A DNA stretch of 64,000 nucleotides from Candidatus Zambryskiibacteriota bacterium (GTDB lineage Bacteria > Patescibacteriota > Minisyncoccia > Phycocordibacterales > WO2-35-19): positions 442 through 64,441 of the forward strand of contig QILQ01000043.1 in NCBI GenBank assembly GCA_003233455.1. The letters run 5' to 3'. Position numbers and translations under genes: made by a program. Under the pieces are notes generated by a model that searched no databases, had not been told where the DNA came from, and was given only the letters and a program-made list of their open reading frames with translations. Shown in pieces: positions 16,358-63,900 of this stretch (positions are counted from its first letter, which is position 1; every line of letters starts with the position of its first letter).

Positions 16358-16648
16358 ATGAAAAATATAGACGAAAAAGAAATACAAAAAACACTTGATG
16401 AAATCAGTAAAAGGACAGAAGAATTTCAATCTGGTGAAAATTATTCTCCAGATAATAAATCTTCTCCTAATCATTTGATGGTAATACTTGCTACTATAGG
16501 AATAATTGTAGTGTTGATTATCGCAACATTTTTTTATAGTAAGGGTAGTGGGTCAAATTCAAAAATAAAAGCTCCAGCTGGATATGAAGTTGTTTATCCA
16601 AAAAATGCCCCTCCTCGTTTACAAAAAAATAATTATGAAAACATCTAA
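16358..16648 (+). CDS. Hypothetical single-pass membrane protein
   Basis: 96 aa with one TM helix. Confidence 0.35.
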   Translation: MKNIDEKEIQKTLDEISKRTEEFQSGENYSPDNKSSPNHLMVILATIGIIVVLIIATFFYSKGSGSNSKIKAPAGYEVVYPKNAPPRLQKNNYENI

Positions 16649-17111
16649 AGGATTTACTTTGATAGAGCTTCTCGTTGTTATCGCTATTATTGGGATACTT
16701 TCATCTATTATTCTTGGGAGTCTTAATAATGCCAGAGCTAGTGCTAGAGATTCAAAAAGAAAGCAAGAAATGATATCTATGCAAACAGCTCTTGAATTGT
16801 ATTATTTTGATAATGGTGTGTATCCTTCAACTAATGGTTCTTGGCGAGGGGCTGTTACATTTGGTAATTATGGAACAGGTGCAACAGGATATATTCCCGG
16901 GTTAGTTCCCAATTATATACCTGTTTTACCGTTAGATCCAAGTGGTACTAATGATGGATATCTCTATCGTTCTAATGGTACTAACTATAAATTGCTTTCA
17001 CATAAAAGTCCGGAGAGTTATCCTGCCCCTGGGACCAAATTTTATGATTCTGCCAGACCCACTTGGGCATGGAAGCTATGTAGTGGAGAACCTGCTTGTA
17101 GTAGTTGGTAA
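16635..17111 (+). CDS. Type IV pilin (prepilin, class III signal peptide)
   Basis: MKTSKGFTLIELLVVIAIIGIL N-terminus; paralog of 50175-50627. Confidence 0.75.
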   Translation: MKTSKGFTLIELLVVIAIIGILSSIILGSLNNARASARDSKRKQEMISMQTALELYYFDNGVYPSTNGSWRGAVTFGNYGTGATGYIPGLVPNYIPVLPLDPSGTNDGYLYRSNGTNYKLLSHKSPESYPAPGTKFYDSARPTWAWKLCSGEPACSSW

Positions 17112-21483: not shown

Positions 21484-22332
21484 ATGGCAATAAAAAATTA
21501 CAAACCAACATCAAAATCAAGGAGACATATGTCTATTGTCTCTTATAAATCTATTTTAACTAAAAACAAACCTCTAAAAGCTCTCACTTCCGGCGTGAAG
21601 AGATCTGTCGGACGAAATAATGCGGGCAGGATAACAACGCGTCATAAAGGTGGCGGTCATAAGAGATTATTTAGAGAGATTGATTTTAAATACAACAAAA
21701 TCAATATTCCTTATAAAATAACTTCTGTGGAATATGACCCAAATCGCACCGGGTTTATCGGTATTGCTGTTTATGAAGATGGCGAGAAAAGATATATTCT
21801 TTTGCCAAAAAATATTAAAGTTGGCGAAAAACTTTTAACAGGAGAAAAGGCGGAAATAAAACAAGGTAATAGATTACCGTTAAAGAGTATACCGACTGGC
21901 GCTTTTGTTTATAATGTGGAACTAAAACCTCTTGGGGGAGCGAGAATTGCTCGTTCAGCCGGCAATTTTGTTCAAGTATTGGCTAAGGATGCTGGTTATG
22001 TTGATTTAAAAATGCCATCTAGTGAAATACGCAAAGTGAAAGAAACTTGTTGGGCCAGTATTGGCACGGTTTCAAATGAAGAAAAAAGACTTGAAAATTA
22101 TGGAAAGGCCGGAAAAAGCAGGTGGAAAGGTATTCGTCCAACAGTACGAGGTACCGCAATGAATCCGGTTGACCATCCGCATGGTGGCGGTGAAGGTAGG
22201 CAAGGCAGAGGCAGGAAACGAGCGGTTTCTAAATGGGGTAAACCAACCGGTAAAGGTCAAAAATCGCGACGCACTAAAAAATATTCTGATAAATTTATTA
22301 TTAGCAGAAGAAAAGTAGGCAAGAAGAGATAA
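21484..22332 (+). CDS. rplB: 50S ribosomal protein L2
   Basis: GTAMNPVDHPHGGGEG motif. Confidence 0.95.
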   Translation: MAIKNYKPTSKSRRHMSIVSYKSILTKNKPLKALTSGVKRSVGRNNAGRITTRHKGGGHKRLFREIDFKYNKINIPYKITSVEYDPNRTGFIGIAVYEDGEKRYILLPKNIKVGEKLLTGEKAEIKQGNRLPLKSIPTGAFVYNVELKPLGGARIARSAGNFVQVLAKDAGYVDLKMPSSEIRKVKETCWASIGTVSNEEKRLENYGKAGKSRWKGIRPTVRGTAMNPVDHPHGGGEGRQGRGRKRAVSKWGKPTGKGQKSRRTKKYSDKFIISRRKVGKKR

Positions 22333-22334
22333 TT

Positions 22335-22742
22335 ATGAATAATATAAAAATTTCACTGATTGATATTGATAAAAGAAAAAAGCTGAATATAAGATCCGGA
22401 GATACAGCGCGTGTTACTCAAAAAATAATTGAAAAAGATAAAAAGACCGGCAAGCCAAAAACCAGATTGCAGGATTTTGAAGGATTATGTTTGGCAGTCA
22501 AGCACGGTAAAGAAGCCGGAGGCACTTTTACTTTGAGAAAAGTGGCGTCAGGGGTGGGAGTTGAAAGAATTTTTCCAATTTATTCTCCAATGATAGAAAA
22601 AATAAAAATAATTAAACGCTCCAAAGTTCGTCGCGCCAAACTTTATCATATTCGTGATAAAGCGGCTAAAGAAATTCGTCGTCAAATGAGAAATGTCAGA
22701 GCTTTACCTAAAGTGGAAGAAATTGAACTTGACACAAAATAA
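22335..22742 (+). CDS. rplS: 50S ribosomal protein L19 (unusual position directly after rplB)
   Basis: RSGDTARV...FEGLCLAVKHG...GVGVERIFPIYSP...VRRAKLYHIR matches L19. Confidence 0.8.
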   Translation: MNNIKISLIDIDKRKKLNIRSGDTARVTQKIIEKDKKTGKPKTRLQDFEGLCLAVKHGKEAGGTFTLRKVASGVGVERIFPIYSPMIEKIKIIKRSKVRRAKLYHIRDKAAKEIRRQMRNVRALPKVEEIELDTK

Positions 22743-34188: not shown

Positions 34189-34415
34189 TGTCACATTTAT
34201 CACCAATTTCACCAAAAAAACTCATAAAACTTTTAAAAAATGAGGGCTTTGTTTGTGTTAAAATAAAAGGAAGTCATCATTTTTTCTTGAATAATATTGA
34301 TAAAAGAACTACTTCTGTACCACTGCACGGTAATAAAGATATTGGGGTGGGACTTTTGCATAAGATTATTAAAGATATAAAAATGTCTGTTGAAAATTTT
34401 AAAAAGAAATTATAA
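34188..34415 (+). CDS. hicA: HicA-family toxin (mRNA interferase)
   Basis: KLLKNEGF...KGSHHFF...TSVPLHGNKDIGVGLLHKIIKDI matches HicA. Confidence 0.6.
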   Translation: MSHLSPISPKKLIKLLKNEGFVCVKIKGSHHFFLNNIDKRTTSVPLHGNKDIGVGLLHKIIKDIKMSVENFKKKL

Positions 34416-34426
34416 AAGTGGAGTGT

Positions 34427-34456
34427 CCTAATTGGGGGGTGAATTTAGCCTAATTG
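34427..34456. repeat. Motif CCTAATTGGGGGGTGAATTTAGCCTAATTG; inverted near-identical copy at window end 63978-64000
   Basis: 22/23 identity to reverse complement of 63978-64000. Confidence 0.5.
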
Positions 34457-34589
34457 TAATTTTTTTGGAATACCACCTGAACCAGAACCACACAATGCTT
34501 TAAATGGTGCTATGACAGCTTATGAACTTTTTAAAAAATTAGAAAATAATGTTTGACATAAATTAACCGTTGTATATACTTTAGATAAT

Positions 34590-34853
34590 ATGAAAACTGT
34601 ATTAAATGTAAAAATGCTAAAAAAGGAAGCACAAAAAATTGCCAAAGAGGCTGGTATTCCTCTGAGTCTTGTGGTAGATAATGGATTGAGAAAATTTGTA
34701 GCTCGCAGAGCAATTACCGTTGAAGCGCCACTTATTCCAAATGCAAAAACTGCCAAGATTTTGGATAGAGTTTTGAAAGATATCAAAGAGGGAAAAAATA
34801 TTGAAGGACCATTCTATTCTGTAGAGGAATTTATGAAAGGTCTTAAATCCTAG
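34590..34853 (+). CDS. RelB/DinJ-family antitoxin
   Basis: Paralog of 19254 and 63330 ORFs. Confidence 0.55.
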   Translation: MKTVLNVKMLKKEAQKIAKEAGIPLSLVVDNGLRKFVARRAITVEAPLIPNAKTAKILDRVLKDIKEGKNIEGPFYSVEEFMKGLKS

Positions 34854-34862
34854 CTTTGAATT

Positions 34863-35126
34863 ATGTTGCTCGTTTACAGGCACAAAAAATTTTCTAAGGA
34901 ATTTAAGAAGCTTCTTAGGGTTGTTCAAGAAAAATTTGAGCAAAAAATAGGAATTTTTGTCATAGATCAGTATTCGGTTGGATTTAATAACCATGGTCTA
35001 AAAAGGAAATATAACGGTTGTAGGAGTATTGATATTACTGGAGATTATAGGGCAATATATTACATAAATAACAGTATTGCAATTTTTATCCATATAGGCA
35101 CTCATCATCAGCTTTATGGAAAATAA
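34863..35126 (+). CDS. YafQ/RelE-family toxin
   Basis: C-terminal IHIGTHHQLY (GTHSDLF-like); paralog of 63640-63900. Confidence 0.6.
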   Translation: MLLVYRHKKFSKEFKKLLRVVQEKFEQKIGIFVIDQYSVGFNNHGLKRKYNGCRSIDITGDYRAIYYINNSIAIFIHIGTHHQLYGK

Positions 35127-36947: not shown

Positions 36948-37289
36948 ATGTCACGATCACTTAAAAAAGGCCCTTATGTTGATGAAAGGGTGCTCAAAAA
37001 AATAGAAGGCAAAAAACCTGCAGATACTGCGGTTATTAAGACTTGGTCTAGAGCTTGTGCTATTGCTCCTGAGATGATTGGTTTCACTTTTGGAGTGCAT
37101 AATGGCAGGGAACATATTGAAGTTTTTGTCACAGAAGATATGGTTGGTCATAAACTTGGAGAATTTTCTTTGACTCGCAAATTTATAAAACATGGAGGTA
37201 AGATGCAAAAAGAACTTGAAGCCAAGAAAAAAGAAGATGAAATAAAAGCGGCTAAATCCGCTAAAGCGACATCTGAATCAAAAAAATAA
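36948..37289 (+). CDS. rpsS: 30S ribosomal protein S19 with Lys-rich C-terminal tail
   Basis: SLKKGPYVD...[28 protein letters not shown]. Confidence 0.85.
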
Positions 37290-37405
37290 GTTAAACATAC
37301 AAATATGCAAATGATGCAAATAATACAAATGAATGCTAATCCATATCCAAATTATATTCGTAGTTATTCGTTGATTAGTATAATTAGTAGATTGGTATAT
37401 TAAAA
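37290..37405. repeat. ~115-bp intergenic element copy 1, starts at rpsS stop codon (copy 2 at 39752-39865)
   Basis: Near-identical (1 mismatch) to copy 2; contains conserved 32-codon [35 protein letters not shown]. Confidence 0.7.
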
Positions 37406-39373: not shown

Positions 39374-39751
39374 ATGATTCAGCCCCAAACAATAATAAAA
39401 ATAGCGGATAATTCAGGTGCCAAATTGGGGCGAGTATTTAAGGTATTGGGTAGTTCTAAAAAAAGATACGCCAGAGTGGGAGAGTTGGTTATCTTTTCTG
39501 TTCAAAAGGCAGAGCCCCGCAAAGAAATTAAAAAGAAAGCGGTGCTTTTGGGTTTAATTGTTCGCCAAAAAGCTCCACTTAGAAGAAAAGACGGTTCTTA
39601 TATTCGTTTTGATGAAAATGCGGCTGTTGTGGTAGAGCGAAAAAAAGGCGAGATTATTCCCAAAGCCGGAAGAATATTTGGTCCGATACCGAGAGAAATC
39701 GCTGAAGCGGGATATCAAGCTATTGTTTCTTTGGCACCTGAAATAATTTAG
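39374..39751 (+). CDS. rplN: 50S ribosomal protein L14
   Basis: MIQPQTIIKIADNSGAK. Confidence 0.9.
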   Translation: MIQPQTIIKIADNSGAKLGRVFKVLGSSKKRYARVGELVIFSVQKAEPRKEIKKKAVLLGLIVRQKAPLRRKDGSYIRFDENAAVVVERKKGEIIPKAGRIFGPIPREIAEAGYQAIVSLAPEII

Positions 39752-39865
39752 TTAAACATACAAATATGCAAATGATGCAAATGATACAAATGAATGCTAA
39801 TCCATATCCAAATTATATTCGTAGTTATTCGTTGATTAGTATAATTAGTAGATTGGTATATTAAA
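39752..39865. repeat. ~115-bp element copy 2, starts at rplN stop codon
   Basis: See 37290-37405. Confidence 0.7.
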
Positions 39866-40716: not shown

Positions 40717-40778
40717 ATAAACTTTAAAAAAGTCCTTACGTCCGTCCTTACGTCCGTAAGTACTTTTTTAGTATGTGA

Positions 40779-41243
40779 TTGAAATCTTTCCAAAGAGATG
40801 ATAAATTGTTAGTAATTATGGTTATAGATATAGAGCTTACTCTAAATAAATTTGGATTTGGGAAGATTGCTGAAAATAAATTTCAACTGTTTTGGTTGAG
40901 GTTTTCTAAATGGAAGATTCCCAACAAACATTCCATTGATTTAGGAAGAAAAAATGATTATAAGCTAAATTGGTGTGGGGATAAAAATGTGATATACTGT
41001 AAGTCTATGATTCAAAATTATATTGAAAATTACTTAAATAAAGCCCAATACGAAATGATAGATGGTGGAAAGAAATTTTATGCGGAAATAAAAAATTTGC
41101 GTGGTGTTTGGGCTACAGGAAAAACCCTTGAAGAATGTCGACGAAATTTAGCTAATACAATTGAAGGGTGGTTGATTTTAAGATTAAAGAAAAATCTCAC
41201 TATTCCAAACTTTAAAGTACCGAGTGTTCGTTTAAAAGTATAA
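40779..41243 (+). CDS. HicB-like antitoxin (extended N-terminus)
   Basis: C-terminal FYAEIKNLRGVWATGKTLEECRRNLANTIEGWL matches HicB core. Confidence 0.5.
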   Translation: MKSFQRDDKLLVIMVIDIELTLNKFGFGKIAENKFQLFWLRFSKWKIPNKHSIDLGRKNDYKLNWCGDKNVIYCKSMIQNYIENYLNKAQYEMIDGGKKFYAEIKNLRGVWATGKTLEECRRNLANTIEGWLILRLKKNLTIPNFKVPSVRLKV

Positions 41244-41249
41244 ATTTAT

Positions 41250-41471
41250 ATGTCTAAATTAGGTCCAATATCATGGATCAAGTTTGTAAGAAGAATGAGA
41301 GTTCTTAATTTTAGTGGACCATATCAAGAAGGCAAGCATCCATACATGATAAAAGGTAATCTTTCTATTACTATTCCAAATCCTCATGAGAGGGATATTG
41401 GTGTAGATTTATTAATTCGTATTTTAAGACAAGCGGGAATTTCTAGATTAGTTTGGATGAAATTTAAGTAA
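41250..41471 (+). CDS. hicA: HicA-family toxin
   Basis: ...KHPYMIKGNLSITIPNPHERDIGVDLLIRILRQAGIS matches HicA. Confidence 0.55.
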   Translation: MSKLGPISWIKFVRRMRVLNFSGPYQEGKHPYMIKGNLSITIPNPHERDIGVDLLIRILRQAGISRLVWMKFK

Positions 41472-41499
41472 TTTTATTTAAAATTATACATTAAAAATT

Positions 41500-41668
41500 G
41501 CAATTTTTTACGGTCGTGTTATAAACCAGATTGTTGAGGCAGGAATGACCGAGGTAAGGCTGTGTGAGTATCAGGATATACATATGGTAGCCGGACTTTT
41601 CAGAAAAGCTCTGCTCTAGCCTAAACGAGGTTGCAATCGAAAGACGCAACCCCTTCTTTTTTATTTTA
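41500..41668 (+). ncRNA. Candidate small RNA / structured 3' region ending in a rho-independent terminator (GGTTGC..GCAACC + U-tract)
   Basis: 170-nt non-coding segment with internal complementarity; identity not established. Confidence 0.2.
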
Positions 41669-43547: not shown

Positions 43548-43648
43548 TTATATTTATATTATTTTAGTATGAAGAATAAAAATGGGATGTAGGAATTATT
43601 AACATAATCTATTGACAGATTGGCTACTTTGGCTATAATAGCTATTAT

Positions 43649-43903
43649 ATGAATCAAATAACATTTACAGCAAAAGAAGCAAAAAATAATTTTGGTAGGC
43701 TTTTAGATGAAGCTCGTCGTTCTCCTGTGGCTATAAACAAAAACGGCAGAAAAGTTGCTTTTGTGGTTTCTTATGAAGATTTTTCTCAATTTGAAGGAAT
43801 GGTAGATTCTTATTGGGGCAAAAAAGCTAAAACGGCAATAAAAAAAGGATATCTGACTGTTGCTGAAAGTAAAAAATTTGTAGATTCTATTTTAAATGCT
43901 TAA
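43649..43903 (+). CDS. Phd/YefM-family antitoxin
   Basis: N-terminal ITFTAKEAKNNFGRLLDEARRSPVAINKNGRKVAFVVSYEDF typical of Phd/YefM. Confidence 0.55.
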   Translation: MNQITFTAKEAKNNFGRLLDEARRSPVAINKNGRKVAFVVSYEDFSQFEGMVDSYWGKKAKTAIKKGYLTVAESKKFVDSILNA

Positions 43904-44168
43904 TATTAGATTTTCAAAATTATCAAAGAAATTTGTAGAAAGAGTTCCAATAAAACACAGAAGACAAATTGTTGAAAAATCTGTAAGTCTAAAAAATAAT
44001 CCTCTACCTTCGGATAGTAGGGCTATGAAGGGATTTCCGGGTTATTTTCGTGTTGATATTGGGGAATATAGGATTATTTATACAATTTCAGAATCTAAAA
44101 TAAATATTGAACTAATTGGTAAAAGAAACGACGACGAAGTTTATCGTAAATTTAAAAGACTTATGTGA
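43896..44168 (+). CDS. RelE/ParE-family toxin
   Basis: GYFRVDIGEYRIIYTI...IELIGKRNDDEVY; 8-nt overlap with antitoxin. Confidence 0.65.
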   Translation: MLNIRFSKLSKKFVERVPIKHRRQIVEKSVSLKNNPLPSDSRAMKGFPGYFRVDIGEYRIIYTISESKINIELIGKRNDDEVYRKFKRLM

Positions 44169-44239
44169 TTAGTAACTGAAGTAATCAACAATATTTGTTT
44201 ACACTTGTGCGGGTTTATGAAGTATAATTAAAATAAATT

Positions 44240-47931: not shown

Positions 47932-48959
47932 ATGGATGATTTAAATAAACTTATAGAACTTATGATTAAAGAAGGAGCTTCAGATTTGCATATTTCTGAA
48001 GGTAGAAATCCTTATATTAGGGTCTCCGGTCAATTAACACCTCTTTTAAAATATCAAAAATTTACTAAAATTTTGATAGAAAATATTGCCAACAAAATTA
48101 TCCCCGAATCTAAAAAAATCATTTTCAAATCTTCTCAAAGTGCTGATTTTGCTTATAGCCATAATGGCAACAGATTTAGGGTTCATGTTTTTTTGGACCA
48201 GCAAAGAATTTGTATGACTTTTCGTTATATTCCCAAAAAAATACCGTCGCTTACCGAATTAAATTTGCCAAATGATTTGGAAAATTTTGCCAGATTAAAA
48301 TCGGGTTTCTTTTTAGTGGTAGGTCCGACCGGACATGGTAAATCAACCACTCTCGCTTCTTTAATAGAGACTATATAATTACCATAGAGGATCCAATAGA
48401 ATATTTGTTTACTGCCAAGAAATCTATTATTCATCAAAGAGAAATTGGGTTGGATACACCAAATTTCGCTTCCGCTTTGCATGATTCTTTTAGAGCTGAC
48501 GCGAATGTTATTATGGTTGGCGAAATGAGAGATATTGATACTATAGCTACCGCGGTTTCTGCCGCGGAAACTGGTCATCTAGTGCTTTCTACTCTGCATA
48601 CTAATAATGCTGCTCAAACAGTTGATCGTATTATAGATTCATTTTCTGCCAGTCAACAAAACCAAGTCCGTATTCAATTAGCTGCTTCTTTATCTGGCAT
48701 CTTTTCTCAAAGACTTATTCCCAAAATATCAGGTGGTCTCATTCCGGCTTATGAGCTTTTAGTGAATAATGTGGCTGTTTCAAATCTTATTAGGGACAAG
48801 AGAACTCACGAATTAAATACTATAATTGAAACTGGGTCGCAAGAAGGTATGATTGATTTCAATAGATGTTTGGTGGAAAAAGTAAATAAAGGCGAAATCA
48901 GTATTGAAAATGCTTATCTTTATTCCACTAATCCGCGTTCTCTGGAAAAAATGTTATAA
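47932..48959 (+). pseudogene. pilT: Twitching-motility ATPase PilT split into two ORFs (47932-48378 and 48405-48959) by an apparent 2-bp insertion near 48366-48372
   Basis: Walker A VGPTGHGKSTT in ORF1; ITIEDPIEY...REIGLDT...HLVLSTLHTN in shifted frame; removing 2 nt gives LIDYIITIEDPIE. Confidence 0.7.
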
Positions 48960-48963
48960 CTTT

Positions 48964-50175
48964 ATGCTTTTTTTATACCAAACAATCAATAAAAACGGAG
49001 AAAGAAAAAAGGGCAGTATAGAAGCTTTTAGTATGGATGCGGCTATAACTTCCTTGCAAAGAAAGGGTCTAGCTGTTTCTTCTATTAAACCAAAAGAGGA
49101 TGATGATGGGGATATTCTTAAAAAAATTCCTTTTTTTAATAGAGTTTCCAATAAGGAAGTAGTTATACTATCAAGACAACTCTCAACTCTTTTTGAAGCT
49201 CAGGTTTCCGCTTTAAGAGTTTTTAAACTTATTGGGACTGAATCCGAAAATCCAACTTTAAGAAAGCATCTTCTTGAAATTGTTGATGATTTACAGGGCG
49301 GATCTTCCATATCGTCCGCTCTCTCCAAACATCCGGATGTATTTTCAGATTTTTATGTGAATATGATTAAATCCGGGGAAGAATCCGGTCATATAGACCA
49401 AACTTTTTCATATTTAGCTGATTATATGGATCGTACTTATGAAGTTTTATCTAAAGCCAAAAACGCACTTATTTATCCGGCTTTTGTTATATTTACTTTT
49501 ATCGCTGTTATGGTCTTAATGTTTACAGTTATTGTGCCTAAAATCTCTCTTATTATAAAAGATTCTTCTCAAGAAATACCCCTTTACACAAAAGTTGTTT
49601 TTTGGATAAGCGATTTTTTCACTAAAAATTGGATACTAATGCTCTTAGCTCTTATTGTAGGTATAATAGGTCTTATTTGGTATGGTAGAACCAAAGAAGG
49701 TAGGAGACAAATTTCAAATGTCAGACTTTATATTCCTTATGTCGGAGATCTTTATCGTAAATTGTATCTTTCCAGATTTTCTGATAATATGAGCACCATG
49801 ATTCTTTCTGGTATTCCAATGCTTAAAGCTATTGAAGTAACTTCTTCTATTATAGATAATGAAATATACAGAGAAATTTTAGTTGAGGCTGCCACTAAAG
49901 TCAAAGCGGGTCAAGCACTTTCGGCGGCTCTCGGCGATAGAGAGGAAATTCCAAGCATTTTAACCCAAATGGTGAGAGTGGGAGAAGAAACCGGAGAACT
50001 TGGTAATATTTTAAAAACAATGTCAAAATTTTATCAGAGAGAAGTTATGAATGCGGTAGATACTTTGGTTGGTATGATTGAGCCTATTATGATAGTAGCT
50101 TTAGGAGTTGGGGTTGGTATTTTATTAGCGTCTGTTCTTATGCCTATATATAATATAGCCGCAATGGCATCATAA
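48964..50175 (+). CDS. pilC: Type IV pilus platform protein PilC (GspF family)
   Basis: Two T2SSF repeats; start at internal Met MLFLYQTINKNGERKKG favoured. Confidence 0.8.
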   Translation: MLFLYQTINKNGERKKGSIEAFSMDAAITSLQRKGLAVSSIKPKEDDDGDILKKIPFFNRVSNKEVVILSRQLSTLFEAQVSALRVFKLIGTESENPTLRKHLLEIVDDLQGGSSISSALSKHPDVFSDFYVNMIKSGEESGHIDQTFSYLADYMDRTYEVLSKAKNALIYPAFVIFTFIAVMVLMFTVIVPKISLIIKDSSQEIPLYTKVVFWISDFFTKNWILMLLALIVGIIGLIWYGRTKEGRRQISNVRLYIPYVGDLYRKLYLSRFSDNMSTMILSGIPMLKAIEVTSSIIDNEIYREILVEAATKVKAGQALSAALGDREEIPSILTQMVRVGEETGELGNILKTMSKFYQREVMNAVDTLVGMIEPIMIVALGVGVGILLASVLMPIYNIAAMAS

Positions 50176-50627
50176 TGAATAAATTTAAAAATAAAAAAGG
50201 TTTTACACTTATTGAACTTCTGGTGGTTATTACCATAATAGGAGTTTTATCCACTATTATTTTAGGCAGTATTTCAAATTCAAGAAATAAGGCTTATAAT
50301 TCAAAAATAGAGCAACAACTTAGCGGTTTTCGCACTGCTGCGGAGATATATTTTACCAATCAAACTCCAAATGGCTATGGTCCAGCCAGCAGTATTTGTA
50401 GTGCGGGTATTTTTAATAATGTTGACCCCATAAATGGCAGTCCCGGTTTATATATAGCGGCAGGCAATCTTCCAGATTTTAGTCAAGTAGTTTGTGGTTC
50501 TACTGATTCATCTTACGCTGTCAAAGCTACTCTGTATTCCGGAAATAAATATTGGTGTGTGGATAATAAAGGATCTTCAAGATTAATATCTGGTGCTATT
50601 GGTAATACGGTTACTTTTTGTCCATAA
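50175..50627 (+). CDS. Type IV pilin (major-pilin paralog)
   Basis: KGFTLIELLVVITIIGVL; C-terminal Cys pair. Confidence 0.75.
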   Translation: MNKFKNKKGFTLIELLVVITIIGVLSTIILGSISNSRNKAYNSKIEQQLSGFRTAAEIYFTNQTPNGYGPASSICSAGIFNNVDPINGSPGLYIAAGNLPDFSQVVCGSTDSSYAVKATLYSGNKYWCVDNKGSSRLISGAIGNTVTFCP

Positions 50628-50709: not shown

Positions 50710-53700
50710 TTAAAGATCAATATTAGTTTCAAAAATTTTATCAAGTTCAAGATTAATCGCTTTTTTTATACTTTCAATTTTTTTATATTTTTCTGCAATT
50801 TCTTTTTGTGCTTGTAAATCAAAATTTTCCTGATTATCAATAGGGATTTGAACTTTAATGTTTTCAATTTGATTTGTACCAAGTTTTTTGTTCCCATAAC
50901 CTTTTGCTTTATCAAAGAATAATGGTTGAATTATGAATTTAATATATTCAAGACAAAGATCATCTTTTCTAGGAATTAAAATGCCACAATGATTGTTTAT
51001 AGTGAAAAAATATTCTTCTTTCTTTTCTTGCAACAAATTCTCTGAATTGCGAACAAATAATTTGCCTGCATAACCATCTACAGACCACGTCAAACAATAT
51101 TGATAATATAAATCATTTTTATTTATTTTATCCAAATCCATTTTCATTAATAATCCTTCATTTTTTGTATTTGATGAATAAACTGGGATGTTACCTTTCC
51201 ATCCATTACCAATTACTCTTTTTTTTGTATAAAATGCGTTACCTTGCTTAATGTTAAAAAGATCATCAATTTTTATCAATTTTGTTTTTTGATCATTTAT
51301 TTTTATCTCAACCATTAAATCCTTGATTTGTTTTTTATATTCTTCAACTTTTTGTTTAACTTCTTTTATTATTTGATATTTATCTAAGATATTTTTTTGA
51401 AAATCTAAATCAAAATCACCATTTGAATCGATTGGTATTTGAACTACAACATCTTTCATGTTTTTCAATGACGATCTTAATCCTCTATCAAATCCATATT
51501 TATGTTTAACTTTCGAAAGTTGTAACATTAAATATTCTGGTAGAATATTATCTGTTAATATTCTAATAACACCACAGTGATCCGTCGTCATAAATGGAGT
51601 GTTTTTTTTGATAAAATTGAATTCAAAATCACCATCAATCCCCCAAATAACAAAATCATTTTCAAAATTTTCTATATTACTTTTAAAATGATAACCAACT
51701 GGATTAAAAACATTAGCACTATAAATTGGAATATTACCACTAATTTTTACTAAATCTTTTTTTACCAACCTTTTACCTATAAATAAATCAAAATATTTCT
51801 TGTCTGATAAAAATATTTCTTTAAAAGAATTTTTTAACTTTTTTTTTTCGCCAAACTCTTTTACAAGCTGACTAAATTCATTAAGAGATTCGGAAATATC
51901 ACCTATCAATTCTCCAAATTCTTGTACTCCAACTATTTTATCTTCTTCTAAAATGCCAAGTTCTATTTTTTCCTCTTTACTCCACCACCTATCAACTGAC
52001 CAATGTTGTTCTGGATTAAATTTATCTATTGATTGAATTTTACATCTTTTATCAGAATTATTTTCAATAAAATATTCTGGACTTCCTTTAAATCCTTTAA
52101 ATAATTTTACAGCTTCTTGTAAATCGTTTTGTTCAATATCAAAACGATAAATATCCCTTGACTCTCCAATCTCACTTACCAAATAAGTAAATACTGGTTT
52201 TTTTTGAATATCTTTTTTGTTTGTTTTCTTTGTAATTGCTAAAATATAAGTTTTCTTTGGAGTAGTGAAAAATGTTTTTATCGGTAGTGAAATAATTCCG
52301 TCAATATAACATTCATCTAAAATAAACTTTCTTAAATTTTTATCATTTTGACGATTTAAAATTCCGTCAGGAATTACTACAAATGCTTTTCCACCTGGTT
52401 TTAATGCTTTCACAATCCACTCCATAAAAAGTCCTTCAACCCCCATAGCATTGATTTTGTAATAATTTTCAAGTTCTCCGTCTTTTTTTATTTCGTCTTT
52501 TAAATTTCCGCTACCACTAGTTACATACGGAGGATTGGTTAAAATTAAATTATATTCATTTTCAACGGGTTCTGAAAGTGTTCCAAGAATAGAATTTGTT
52601 TTAAGAGTAAAGCTATCATTAAATAATTTTGCAAATTCTTGTGTTAGATTTGGATTGTCTTTTATTAAATCAGAAAAATAAATCAGCATATTGGCTTTTG
52701 CCAAAATAATTGTTTTCTGTTCATCTTTATCAAAACCTTTATCAAAGCCATGAATAGCTATCTTTGAAACAATTTTATCTTTTTTAATATTATAAAAATC
52801 TTCAAGTCTTGTCGTTAATGGCTCTAAAAGGAATTTACCAACTCCGCAAGCAGGATCACAAATACTTACTCCTTCCTTTATATCGTCTTTTGCCATTTCG
52901 ACAATAGAACGAACAACTTTTAATGGGGTGAAAAACTGTCCCCAGTTTTTCTTACTAATACTTTCCTTCAAAAAACTCTCAAAAATCTGACTTTTGAAGT
53001 CATAATCAATATTTTCTAATTTTCCATATTTCAGAAATTTATCTAAAACAGTTTTAAAAGTCGTACTATATCCTTTAACAGCTTTTTGATCTTTATTTAC
53101 AAAAATTGTTCCATTGATAATAGTAGTTTTATCTTCTGTGTCTTGTGGAAATAATTGTTTAATTTTTGGACGAATTGTTGTTGCGTAGTGTTCTAATACT
53201 TCGTTTTCTGTATTACCACCATCATACATTTTAATGAGAGTATAAAAATTATGGACTCCTTTTAAAACATCTAAGTCACTAAGATATTTGAAAATGAAAA
53301 GTTCAACAAAAGTATAAAGACAATTTTCAGGAGTTGCTCCACTTACAGACCAAATATCTTGCCAAATGCTTTTTGCCAAATTTGTTGGATTTACAAATTC
53401 TTTTGGTTTTATATTATCAGTTTGCTCATTTATAGAATCATAAACTTTTTTTAATAATTCTGGTAGTTTTTCAGCTCTTGAATCAAATAAAACTTTAATT
53501 TCTTTTCCATTTTCATCTTTAATCCTATTCCCAGTTAAAGCATTTATCCAAATAGCTTCTTTTGTGTCTGTAGCAATAAAAATTTTAGCTCCCAATTTTT
53601 TAGCAACTTCAATTTCCTGTTCAATAGCTTTACTATGATCTTTTGCTGTCTTAAATTTTTTAGGAATTTTATATTCAATAACTGCAATAACATTTTTATT

Positions 53701-53874
53701 CTGTACCATGAGAGCATCAACTTTTTTTCTTTCAAAAGCTCCATAATTAACATTACGAATAATATTTGATTCTTTTAGAGCTTTTACTGTTGTTGCTCCA
53801 ATATTATAAAAATCCCATTTCCCAATTTTCTCTGGGTTTTTTATTAAATCCCTTTGTAGAAGTTCTTCACTCAT
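50710..53874 (-). CDS. Single-chain restriction-modification enzyme: N-terminal PD-(D/E)xK nuclease, gamma-class N6-adenine MTase, two HsdS-like target-recognition domains (Type IIB/IIG-like)
   Basis: D...VIEYK (PD-ExK), FFTP, DPACGVGKFL (motif I), NPPY (motif IV), two TRD-terminal QIPID..FDL..QK.I..KY conserved blocks. Confidence 0.65.
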   Translation of the reverse strand: MSEELLQRDLIKNPEKIGKWDFYNIGATTVKALKESNIIRNVNYGAFERKKVDALMVQNKNVIAVIEYKIPKKFKTAKDHSKAIEQEIEVAKKLGAKIFIATDTKEAIWINALTGNRIKDENGKEIKVLFDSRAEKLPELLKKVYDSINEQTDNIKPKEFVNPTNLAKSIWQDIWSVSGATPENCLYTFVELFIFKYLSDLDVLKGVHNFYTLIKMYDGGNTENEVLEHYATTIRPKIKQLFPQDTEDKTTIINGTIFVNKDQKAVKGYSTTFKTVLDKFLKYGKLENIDYDFKSQIFESFLKESISKKNWGQFFTPLKVVRSIVEMAKDDIKEGVSICDPACGVGKFLLEPLTTRLEDFYNIKKDKIVSKIAIHGFDKGFDKDEQKTIILAKANMLIYFSDLIKDNPNLTQEFAKLFNDSFTLKTNSILGTLSEPVENEYNLILTNPPYVTSGSGNLKDEIKKDGELENYYKINAMGVEGLFMEWIVKALKPGGKAFVVIPDGILNRQNDKNLRKFILDECYIDGIISLPIKTFFTTPKKTYILAITKKTNKKDIQKKPVFTYLVSEIGESRDIYRFDIEQNDLQEAVKLFKGFKGSPEYFIENNSDKRCKIQSIDKFNPEQHWSVDRWWSKEEKIELGILEEDKIVGVQEFGELIGDISESLNEFSQLVKEFGEKKKLKNSFKEIFLSDKKYFDLFIGKRLVKKDLVKISGNIPIYSANVFNPVGYHFKSNIENFENDFVIWGIDGDFEFNFIKKNTPFMTTDHCGVIRILTDNILPEYLMLQLSKVKHKYGFDRGLRSSLKNMKDVVVQIPIDSNGDFDLDFQKNILDKYQIIKEVKQKVEEYKKQIKDLMVEIKINDQKTKLIKIDDLFNIKQGNAFYTKKRVIGNGWKGNIPVYSSNTKNEGLLMKMDLDKINKNDLYYQYCLTWSVDGYAGKLFVRNSENLLQEKKEEYFFTINNHCGILIPRKDDLCLEYIKFIIQPLFFDKAKGYGNKKLGTNQIENIKVQIPIDNQENFDLQAQKEIAEKYKKIESIKKAINLELDKIFETNIDL

Positions 53875-54209
53875 AATTTAAGTTTATTGAAGTAAATATA
53901 TAAATCTACTAATTTTAGTATACAATTATTTTAACTTTTTTACTATACATTGTATTTTTATGTGCCCATTTATTTAATGAATGCAATATGTATGTGAACT
54001 TGGTCAATTAAAAATCTTTAAATTCAAATTTTTTCAAAAATATGTCATATAATAAATACTTTCGCTTGCGAGGAGGACTGGTTATCCACATATTAGCTAC
54101 AAAAAAATTAACGTTTGTTTATAATATATTAAGGCTTGAAAGTGAAAATAAGGTCGATGTTGTCAAGCTTCTCTCTCGAGAGAGCATTAATTAATTTTAT
54201 TTTAAAATT

Positions 54210-54658
54210 ATGTTTAAATTAAGAAATAAAGGTTTTACACTTATTGAACTTCTAGTGGTTATCGCTATTATTGGTATTCTTTCTTCCGTTGTTTTAGCGT
54301 CTCTAAACACCGCTCGTGGTAGAGGTAATGATGCTAAAGTTAAAGCTCAGCTTTCCGGTCTTCGGGTCTTCGTGCCGCTGCTGAACTCTATTATGATGAT
54401 AATCCAACTCAGGGTTATGGTCCCGCATCTTCCAGTTGTACAACTGGTATGTTTGCTAATGCGACTGTTCAAGCTTATATCGCTCCCGCTAATCTTCCAG
54501 CTAACGCTACCCCGGCATGTTTCTCTTCTACCGGTAGTTATGCGGTTACAACCAAACTTCCTGGCGCAGGTGGTGCTAACAAATGGTGTGTTGATTCACT
54601 TGGTGTTTCTAAGCAAGTTATCGGTATCGCTACTTCGGCTGGTTGTCCCGCTTCCTAA
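54210..54658 (+). pseudogene. Type IV pilin paralog inactivated by 8-bp tandem duplication (GGTCTTCG x2 at 54357-54372)
   Basis: N-terminus KGFTLIELLVVIAIIGIL in frame 1; C-terminal pilin homology (KWCVDSLG...) in +2 frame; duplication visible. Confidence 0.65.
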
Positions 54659-54727
54659 ATACCTGACTTATTTTGTTGCCGAACAAAAGCCTCATTTGGA
54701 GGCTTTTGTGTTATTATATGGAAGTAA

Positions 54728-55585
54728 ATGCAATATTTATTTTTAATCATTATTTTTTTATTCGGAACGGCTTTAGGAAGTTTTGTTACTGTGATTGCCA
54801 ATAGGTTCAATACCGGTTTACCTTTTTTTAGAGGTAGGTCATTTTGTTTCTCTTGCAACACCAAACTTCAAAAAAAAGATTTAGTTCCATTATTTTCTTT
54901 TTTATTTTTAAAAGGCAGATGCAGATATTGTAAAAGCAAGATACCCAGAGAAACTTTAATAATTGAGATTTTAATGGGTATTTTATCGGTATTATCCGCT
55001 CTGAAATCCGGTTTTTCAGTTTTTGATTTTTCCTTATTGTCTATTATTAACTATTTGCTACTAACTTTTATTTTTGCCACTATTCTTCTGATTGCTGTCT
55101 ATGATATAAAACATTTTATTATTCCCGATTCTTTTCTTTTTACTCTTTTTCTTTTTTCTTTGTTTTATATTTCTTTATCCAACTTTATCATTCAAACTAA
55201 TATAATAAATAATATATATTCTCTTATTCCTTTTTTCATTTCTTCTATAATTCTAACACTGCCATTCTTGTTAATTTTTGTTATTTCAAAAGGTCGGTGG
55301 CTTGGTTTTGGGGATATTAAATATATTTTAGTTTTGGGTTTTCTGCTTGGGTTTAGTCAAGGGTTGTCGGCTGTAATTTTAGCCTTTTGGATAGGAGCGG
55401 CTTTTTCTTTGATAATTTTATCTTTAAAATATTTTAGGTTACATATAAATTTGCCTTTACTCCGTAATAATTTTACAATTAAATCTGAGATTCCTTTTGG
55501 ACCATTTTTATCAATTGGGATAATAATAAGTCTTTATTTAAATGCTGATTTATTTCAAATACATTCTCTCTTTAATATCTTCTAA
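54728..55585 (+). CDS. pilD: Prepilin peptidase (A24 family) with N-terminal Cys4 zinc finger
   Basis: CxxC...CxxC, catalytic Asp-containing polytopic fold. Confidence 0.85.
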   Translation: MQYLFLIIIFLFGTALGSFVTVIANRFNTGLPFFRGRSFCFSCNTKLQKKDLVPLFSFLFLKGRCRYCKSKIPRETLIIEILMGILSVLSALKSGFSVFDFSLLSIINYLLLTFIFATILLIAVYDIKHFIIPDSFLFTLFLFSLFYISLSNFIIQTNIINNIYSLIPFFISSIILTLPFLLIFVISKGRWLGFGDIKYILVLGFLLGFSQGLSAVILAFWIGAAFSLIILSLKYFRLHINLPLLRNNFTIKSEIPFGPFLSIGIIISLYLNADLFQIHSLFNIF

Positions 55586-63185: not shown

Positions 63186-63329
63186 CAATATTTCGATAGG
63201 GTCACATAAAATCGGTAAGAATGCTTTGCATATTGTATGAAATAAAGTAATATAAAAAATATCCAAATATTAAAATACATTTTAATATATACTTTGATAT
63301 TTATATAGTATTTTAGTGTACAAAGATAT

Positions 63330-63635
63330 TTGACAATACCTACCATATGTATATACTTGTGGTATATGAAAATACAAGTCAATTTAAAAATAGATAATAG
63401 TGTTAAAAAACAAGCTCAAAAAAGAGCTAAAAACATAGGTCTCTCTCTTAGCTCTATTGTTAATGCTACTTTAAAACAGTTTGCTAAAACTGGAGAACTT
63501 GAATTATCTTCTGCTCCTAAAATGACTCCTTATCTTGAAAAATTAGTTTTTGAAGCTAGAAAAGAATATTTAAAAGGTAAGACTTATGGTCCGTTTGATA
63601 ATGTTAAGGATTTAATGAAGCATTTAAATTCTTGA
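63330..63635 (+). CDS. RelB/DinJ-family antitoxin
   Basis: KIQVNLKIDNSVKKQAQKRAKNIGLSLSSIVNATLKQF matches DinJ; paralog of 19254 and 34590. Confidence 0.55.
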   Translation: MTIPTICIYLWYMKIQVNLKIDNSVKKQAQKRAKNIGLSLSSIVNATLKQFAKTGELELSSAPKMTPYLEKLVFEARKEYLKGKTYGPFDNVKDLMKHLNS

Positions 63636-63639
63636 TTAT

Positions 63640-63900
63640 ATGAGGATTATTACTACCACAAAGTTTGATAAACAATTTAGAAAACAACCTTTAAAAATTA
63701 AAATAGAATTTGAAAATAGAGTTGAGATATTCATAGAAAATGTAAACGCTCCAATTCTTAACACTCATAAATTGTCTGGAAAATTGAAAGATTTATGGAG
63801 TTTCAATATAAGTGGAAATATTAGAGTTGTTTTTGATAAAAACCAAGAAAGTATAATTATATTTATTGCCATTGGTTCTCATTCGCAACTCTATAATTAG
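63640..63900 (+). CDS. YafQ/RelE-family toxin
   Basis: C-terminal IFIAIGSHSQLY. Confidence 0.6.
   Translation: MRIITTTKFDKQFRKQPLKIKIEFENRVEIFIENVNAPILNTHKLSGKLKDLWSFNISGNIRVVFDKNQESIIIFIAIGSHSQLYN

Follow-up and report, generated by a model that had tools for sequence, protein, structure and literature searches.

The window, that is the whole stretch of 64,000 nucleotides analyzed here, carries a complete type IV pilus operon in which pilM/N, pilB, a response regulator gene, pilT, pilC and a first pilin gene (pilin 1) are followed by an N6_Mtase gene on the opposite strand, a second, interrupted pilin gene, pilD and minor pilins. Four proteins with N_methyl or PilX_N domains (minor pilin or PilX-like) were found among the pilus neighbors, and the interrupted gene lies in the genomic company expected for a type IV pilin, namely PilB, PilT, PilC, PilD and minor pilins. 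A third pilin-like gene, with N_methyl and T2SSG domains, occurs at 16584-17111, far from the main pilus operon. The coordinates of the features are collected in Table 1.

Table 1. Features of the window. Differences in length are given for the window relative to the second assembly.
Feature	Position	Strand	Description
Type IV pilin gene	54210-54658	+	leader MFKLRNKG/FTLIE, four conserved Cys; the reading frame of the window shifts at codon 52
Tandem duplication GGTCTTCG-GGTCTTCG	54357-54372	+	exact; single copy in the second assembly
Terminator-like hairpin	54683-54709	+	stem of 11 bp with a T-rich tail; just past the true stop codon of the pilin
Prepilin peptidase PilD	54728-55585	+	A24_N_bact and Peptidase_A24 domains
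Paralogous pilin (pilin 1)	50175-50627	+	150 aa; closest relatives only
N6_Mtase-domain protein (restriction-modification type)	50710-53874	-	1054 aa; between the two pilin genes; G+C 26%; both assemblies
pilT	47932-48959	+	two ORFs of 148 and 184 aa in place of the intact 349-aa protein of the second assembly
125-bp repeat copy	37280-37404	+	upstream of rplV; second copy at 39741-39865
-10 bp	29260/29261	+	nusG frameshift; a 144-aa remnant replaces the 181-aa product of the second assembly
-9 bp	34615/34616	+	in frame, small antitoxin-like gene; 90 to 87 aa; VKIDPKLKK to VKMLKK
-2 bp	37321	+	intergenic, rpsS/rplV, within the 125-bp repeat
-18 bp	37405	+	start codon and first residues of rplV lost; starts exactly at the right edge of the 125-bp repeat
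-22 bp	48374/48375	+	frameshift in pilT, closely following the Walker A motif
+8 bp	54365	+	pilin duplication

The interrupted pilin gene and its neighborhood

Within the pilin gene the 8-mer GGTCTTCG occurs twice in tandem, the duplicated segment (GGTCTTCGGGTCTTCG) consisting of two exact copies whose period-8 match extends 0 bases on either side. The reading frame opening at the ATG at 54210 encodes MFKLRNKGFTLIELLVVIAIIGILSSVVLASLNTARGRGNDAKVKAQLSGLR, is shifted at codon 52, after the residues AQLSGLR, and then runs for 126 codons out of frame up to 54746, giving a called product of 178 aa (54210-54746; P0158). The remaining pilin sequence (AAAELYYDDNPTQGYGPASSSC...KWCVDSLGVSKQ...GCPAS) is free of stops in the +2 frame until the stop codon at 54658 and bears no other downstream lesion, and deletion of one copy of the 8-mer returned a 441-nt ORF of 146 codons corresponding to a 146-aa pilin (P0001). 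The first-pass annotation had reported a pilin interrupted by an 8-bp tandem duplication, with the rest of the gene intact in the +2 frame and homologous to the pilin at 50175-50627. All these observations were confirmed, the latter gene being a paralogue 47% identical to the repaired protein, while the interpretation attached to them was only partly supported, as described below.

The duplication was also considered on a statistical basis. The window contains seven exact 8-bp tandem duplications against about 2.6 expected from a first-order Markov model, indicating that such a duplication is not rare by itself; its significance comes instead from the disruption of the frame and from the comparison with a single-copy allele. 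Any meaning in the 126 stop-free codons following the shift was discarded, as third positions are mostly T and stops are consequently rare in that frame.

The repaired protein matched the Pfam family PF07963 (N_methyl) with an E value of 9e-10 and a score of 38.2 bits (cut-off 21.2), and its prepilin N-terminus, as read from the sequence, is MFKLRNKG/FTLIELLVVIAIIG, thus displaying the N-terminal methylation motif of type IV pilins. Four conserved cysteines are present in the repaired protein and in the second assembly, the globular domain with its C-terminal cysteines being out of frame in the window as deposited. Thousands of homologues were found, the named ones belonging to Candidatus Zambryskibacteria and other Parcubacteria, and the repaired protein is 60-67% identical to the named pilins of these groups.

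The gene order pilB-pilT-pilC-(pilin 1)-this pilin type-pilD-minor pilins is kept in about 50 related loci, as examined in 54 species-representative genomes encoding a relative, while the pilin 1 type is limited to the closest relatives among the 54 loci compared. L002, the closest relative recovered, has a PilC and a homologue of the interrupted pilin that are each 83% identical to their counterparts in the window, and its two pilin genes are adjacent. Since the gene at 54210-54658, unlike that at 50175-50627, is kept directly upstream of pilD across relatives, comparison of these loci identifies it as the core pilin conserved in pilus operons of the Parcubacteria (Zambryskibacteria-like) kind and not an alternative pilin. 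The proposal of an alternative major pilin was therefore not sustained, as it is this gene and not its paralogue that is conserved beside pilD across Parcubacteria.

The G+C content of the gene (43.7% versus 32%) raised the idea of a foreign or highly expressed pilin, which was dropped because the GC3 value of 0.23 equals that of the rest of the genome. A codon index based on ribosomal genes and EF-Tu ranked the pilin as average, giving no indication of high expression. The excess G+C stems from the amino acid composition, and the codon usage is native.

A homologue of the 1054-aa N6_Mtase protein was not found in any of the 54 related pilus loci. This absence, together with the adjacency of the two pilin genes in L002, indicates that the restriction-modification gene is a lineage-specific insertion, in agreement with the adjacent RM insertion mentioned in the first-pass annotation.

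Comparison with a second assembly

A protein identical to the repaired pilin (100% identity over 146 aa) is encoded on the JGI contig Ga0212224_1000143 (39,398 bp, IMG 3300020233). This contig was compared with the window through three overlapping pieces (L005, L004 and L001) covering positions 24803-64000, and over these 39.2 kb the comparison returned 0 substitutions and 6 small indels. The lesion count refers to this region only, as there is no second assembly for positions 1-24802, where a Pfam check of the odd-looking ORFs revealed nothing clearly broken.

The second contig stems from the second assembly round of sample TVG10, a black-smoker chimney layer from the southern Mid-Atlantic Ridge; for this round a subset of the HiSeq 2000 reads used in the first was recruited and the IDBA-UD settings were kept unchanged (PMC6946796). 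The BioProjects of that study are PRJNA385762 and PRJNA480137 (PMC6946796). First-round assemblies were deposited in IMG and the MAGs in NCBI (PMC6946796). From the sources of the two contigs and this description, we infer that the 64,508-bp contig containing the window derives from IMG 3300003886, the first-round assembly of the same TVG10 reads.

Four of the indels break genes (nusG, rplV, pilT and the pilin), all of them in the contig of the window only, and each of these genes is intact on the other contig. The intact NusG of 181 aa agrees in length with most of the members listed for its cluster, while the L22 product of the window consists of 117 aa and is devoid of the ATG and of the N-terminus. 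Exact look-ups located each of the lesion-bearing products, namely the 178-aa pilin, the 148-aa and 184-aa PilT pieces, the 144-aa NusG, the 117-aa L22 and the 87-aa antitoxin (P0158, P0159, P0152, P0135, P0150 and P0131), on one contig only, that of 64,508 bp available from both NCBI and JGI/IMG; the five intact counterparts were found on the 39,398-bp contig only and the unaffected proteins on both. As the window is this public contig and the contig carries the same broken products, the lesions were not introduced after deposition. Pilus genes make up about a third of the compared region and contain two of the six lesions, so that the pilus was not targeted.

The four longer deletions showed microhomology of 0-2 bp only. 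Two lesions of the rplV region are associated with the 125-bp repeat, whereas within the window a repeat boundary was not seen at the site of the pilin lesion, the closest stretch of paralogous similarity (82-85% identical) ending about 80 bp upstream of it. The two copies of the 125-bp repeat are 96.8% identical, lie in the ribosomal protein cluster and each end at the start codon of rplV or rplX; they may represent a duplicated leader or promoter. Exact 12-bp tandem repeats at 40732 and 45662 are common to both assemblies.

The restriction-modification gene occupies the same place on the contig carrying the intact, single-copy pilin. As the gene is present with both alleles, the duplication is not linked to its insertion, and the pseudogenization that had been tentatively tied to this event found no confirmation.

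Further features of the ribosomal and pilus regions were recorded. Small toxin-antitoxin pairs (HicA/HicB-like, YafQ-like with a small partner, and ParE/Phd) are located among these genes at about 34300-35100, 40780-41500, 43640-44170 and 63300-63900. The S10 cluster seems interrupted (21484-22742; 36948 onwards), with an L19-like gene 3 bp after rplB and rpsS-rplV-rpsC about 14 kb downstream; a mis-join may be responsible, the region 1-24802 being covered by one assembly only.

Origin of the duplication

The duplication quite probably arose as a local error during assembly of the deposited 64.5-kb IDBA-UD contig and is not the state of the genome of the organism. The real gene most likely contains one GGTCTTCG and would encode an intact 146-aa type IV pilin. 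This interpretation is based on the lesions in essential genes combined with the complete lack of substitutions. NusG and L22 are normally essential, and cells should not survive a frameshift in nusG together with the loss of the rplV start codon, so that these lesions are read as artifacts. In natural divergence substitutions far outnumber indels, and the 0 substitutions against 6 indels observed here represent the opposite of natural variation. The scarce microhomology at the four longer deletions is unlike that of deletions generated by replication slippage. Graph assemblers break and rejoin contigs at repeat edges, and the occurrence of the 18-bp deletion at the edge of the repeat and of the 2-bp deletion inside it lends support to an artifact. 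The indels may have arisen as the assembler joined or corrected pieces of the contig, in which case it would have written an 8-bp overlap twice at the pilin and dropped 2-22 bp at the five other sites.

Local assembly errors are prominent in IDBA-UD assemblies, and duplicated sequence at scaffold joins with overlapping flanks has been described (Chen et al. 2020, Genome Res 30:315, PMC7111523). Such errors are recognized by a consensus that at the site has no perfect support from any read, and 13 errors per 1.13 Mb were reported for one curated CPR genome (PMC7111523). In the present case a differing assembly restores intact conserved genes, as expected for a local assembly error. Against an artifact count the six errors in 39 kb, a density exceeding that quoted for the curated genome, the second assembly, which was obtained with the same assembler and shows no lesions of its own, and the pilin site itself, with no repeat boundary in the window. 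The first-pass annotation had foreseen an artifact as the outcome that a single copy in the reads would reveal; this is the outcome best supported, on the evidence of a second assembly rather than of reads.

The two-copy sequence stands in the deposited record and pilT is broken on the same contig, which would fit a real null allele: a subpopulation of the chimney would carry a spontaneous 8-bp duplication that inactivates the core pilin, perhaps alongside a null mutation of pilT, and the first assembly would have taken the variant path. Small tandem duplications are indeed a common class of spontaneous mutation and pilus loss is selectable, for instance by pilus-dependent phages. This explanation, even if confined to the pilin, is nevertheless unlikely, as the same contig carries the nusG frameshift and the loss of the rplV start, not expected in a viable lineage, the ratio of substitutions to indels over 39.2 kb is the reverse of natural variation, the pilus genes are not enriched for lesions and the four longer deletions show hardly any microhomology. 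It is very unlikely that two-copy and one-copy alleles coexist in the chimney and that gain or loss of 8 bp turns the pilus off and possibly back on, with pilT as a second hit; if true, the pilus expression of an episymbiotic Parcubacterium would be set by an 8-bp duplication in its core pilin. A programmed on/off switch, in which slipped-strand mispairing would take the 8-mer from one to two copies and back and thus toggle the core pilin, had been put forward on the earlier reading of the locus. The occurrence of both forms in assemblies from one site and the undamaged downstream frame are in line with it. However, we regard it as highly improbable, since there are exactly two 8-mers and no contingency-locus tract made of many copies of a short unit, GGTCTTAG occurs just once, without repetition, at this site in the close relative L002, and the difference in copy number travels with five unrelated indels, being just one of six indel-only differences. 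Neither a frameshift nor an insertion was found at the pilin site in the 54 species-level loci or in the 12 closest proteins, and no repeat tract, and hence no conserved and length-variable one, was present there in any relative compared. A scan of metagenome and genome contig collections with AAAGCTCAGCTTTCC-N{8,32}-TGCCGCTGCTGAACTC, which would capture alleles of one, two or three copies, returned 0 matches, a result uninformative on the population as TVG10 was evidently absent from them.

A decaying pseudogene, possibly triggered by the restriction-modification insertion and with the paralogue at 50175-50627 taking over as pilus subunit, would account for a frame-shifted gene, an intact paralogue and a foreign gene between them. 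Several independent lesions and substitutions would mark such a gene, yet a single 8-bp lesion was observed, apart from which the gene is identical to the intact allele, with no substitution over 39.2 kb. The restriction-modification gene, moreover, coexists with an intact pilin on the other contig, and the pilin at 54210-54658 is the one kept beside pilD in all relatives. Decay is thus extremely improbable, and the recent pseudogenization offered as one option in the first-pass annotation does not hold in this sense. Finally, the pilin frame would be regained if the ribosome slipped by -1 after the TTC codon, and a programmed -1 ribosomal frameshift might thereby bypass the lesion and yield a pilin with three extra residues. 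Inspection of the pilin site and its surroundings revealed no slippery heptamer of the X XXY YYZ type, which led us to reject programmed frameshifting; no Rfam elements were detected in 53700-54800, and the relatives have no insertion at the site, making the probability of a bypass close to negligible.

A local assembly error thus being the preferred explanation, the duplication most likely does not reflect real biology and the gene would be intact in the organism. The result has a bearing on data quality, as at least six indels were counted over 39 kb of a public MAG contig, with breaks in nusG, rplV, pilT and the core pilin, and the broken products (P0158, P0159, P0152, P0135 and P0150) are already separate entries in protein databases. 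Inferring pilus loss, gene decay or phase variation for the lineage from the deposited record would mislead, and a second assembly of the same sample provides a quick check on such claims.

Comparison with known systems

In its repaired form the pilin of the window shares with the type IV pilins of Parcubacteria and Zambryskibacteria (PF07963) the G/FTLIE leader, the four cysteines and the position of the gene directly upstream of pilD; the first ~52 residues are nearly invariant in these pilins and the window pilin is alike. It differs from those loci in that the gene is frame-shifted at codon 52 and a 3.6-kb insertion, with the restriction-modification gene on it, separates it from the upstream paralogue.

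Slipped-strand phase variation at simple repeats, exemplified by the poly-G tract of Neisseria pilC, resembles the present case in that the gain or loss of tandem units shifts the frame of a pilus gene. In contingency loci, however, short units are repeated over long tracts that exist in many lengths and are conserved among strains, whereas here one extra 8-mer is found and the tract is absent in all relatives compared. Another parallel is offered by pneumococcal cap3A, for which Waite and colleagues in 2001 reportedly demonstrated reversible intragenic tandem duplications by isolating switching variants. There, a short duplication within the ORF causes a null phenotype that can revert by the precise loss of one copy, and the same is conceivable here; unlike in cap3A, the duplication of the window travels with five unrelated indels, and the one-copy and two-copy forms come from one assembly each.

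With respect to the published example of local assembly errors (PMC7111523), the lesions described here are denser (6 in 39 kb), the pilin site lies off detectable repeats and the putative errors are seen in assembled sequence. The published errors include changes at repeats and sequence duplicated at joins with overlapping flanks, and both assemblies compared here are IDBA-UD products of one sample. As in that example, small changes in the scaffold truncate or frameshift genes and come to light under a different assembly (PMC7111523).
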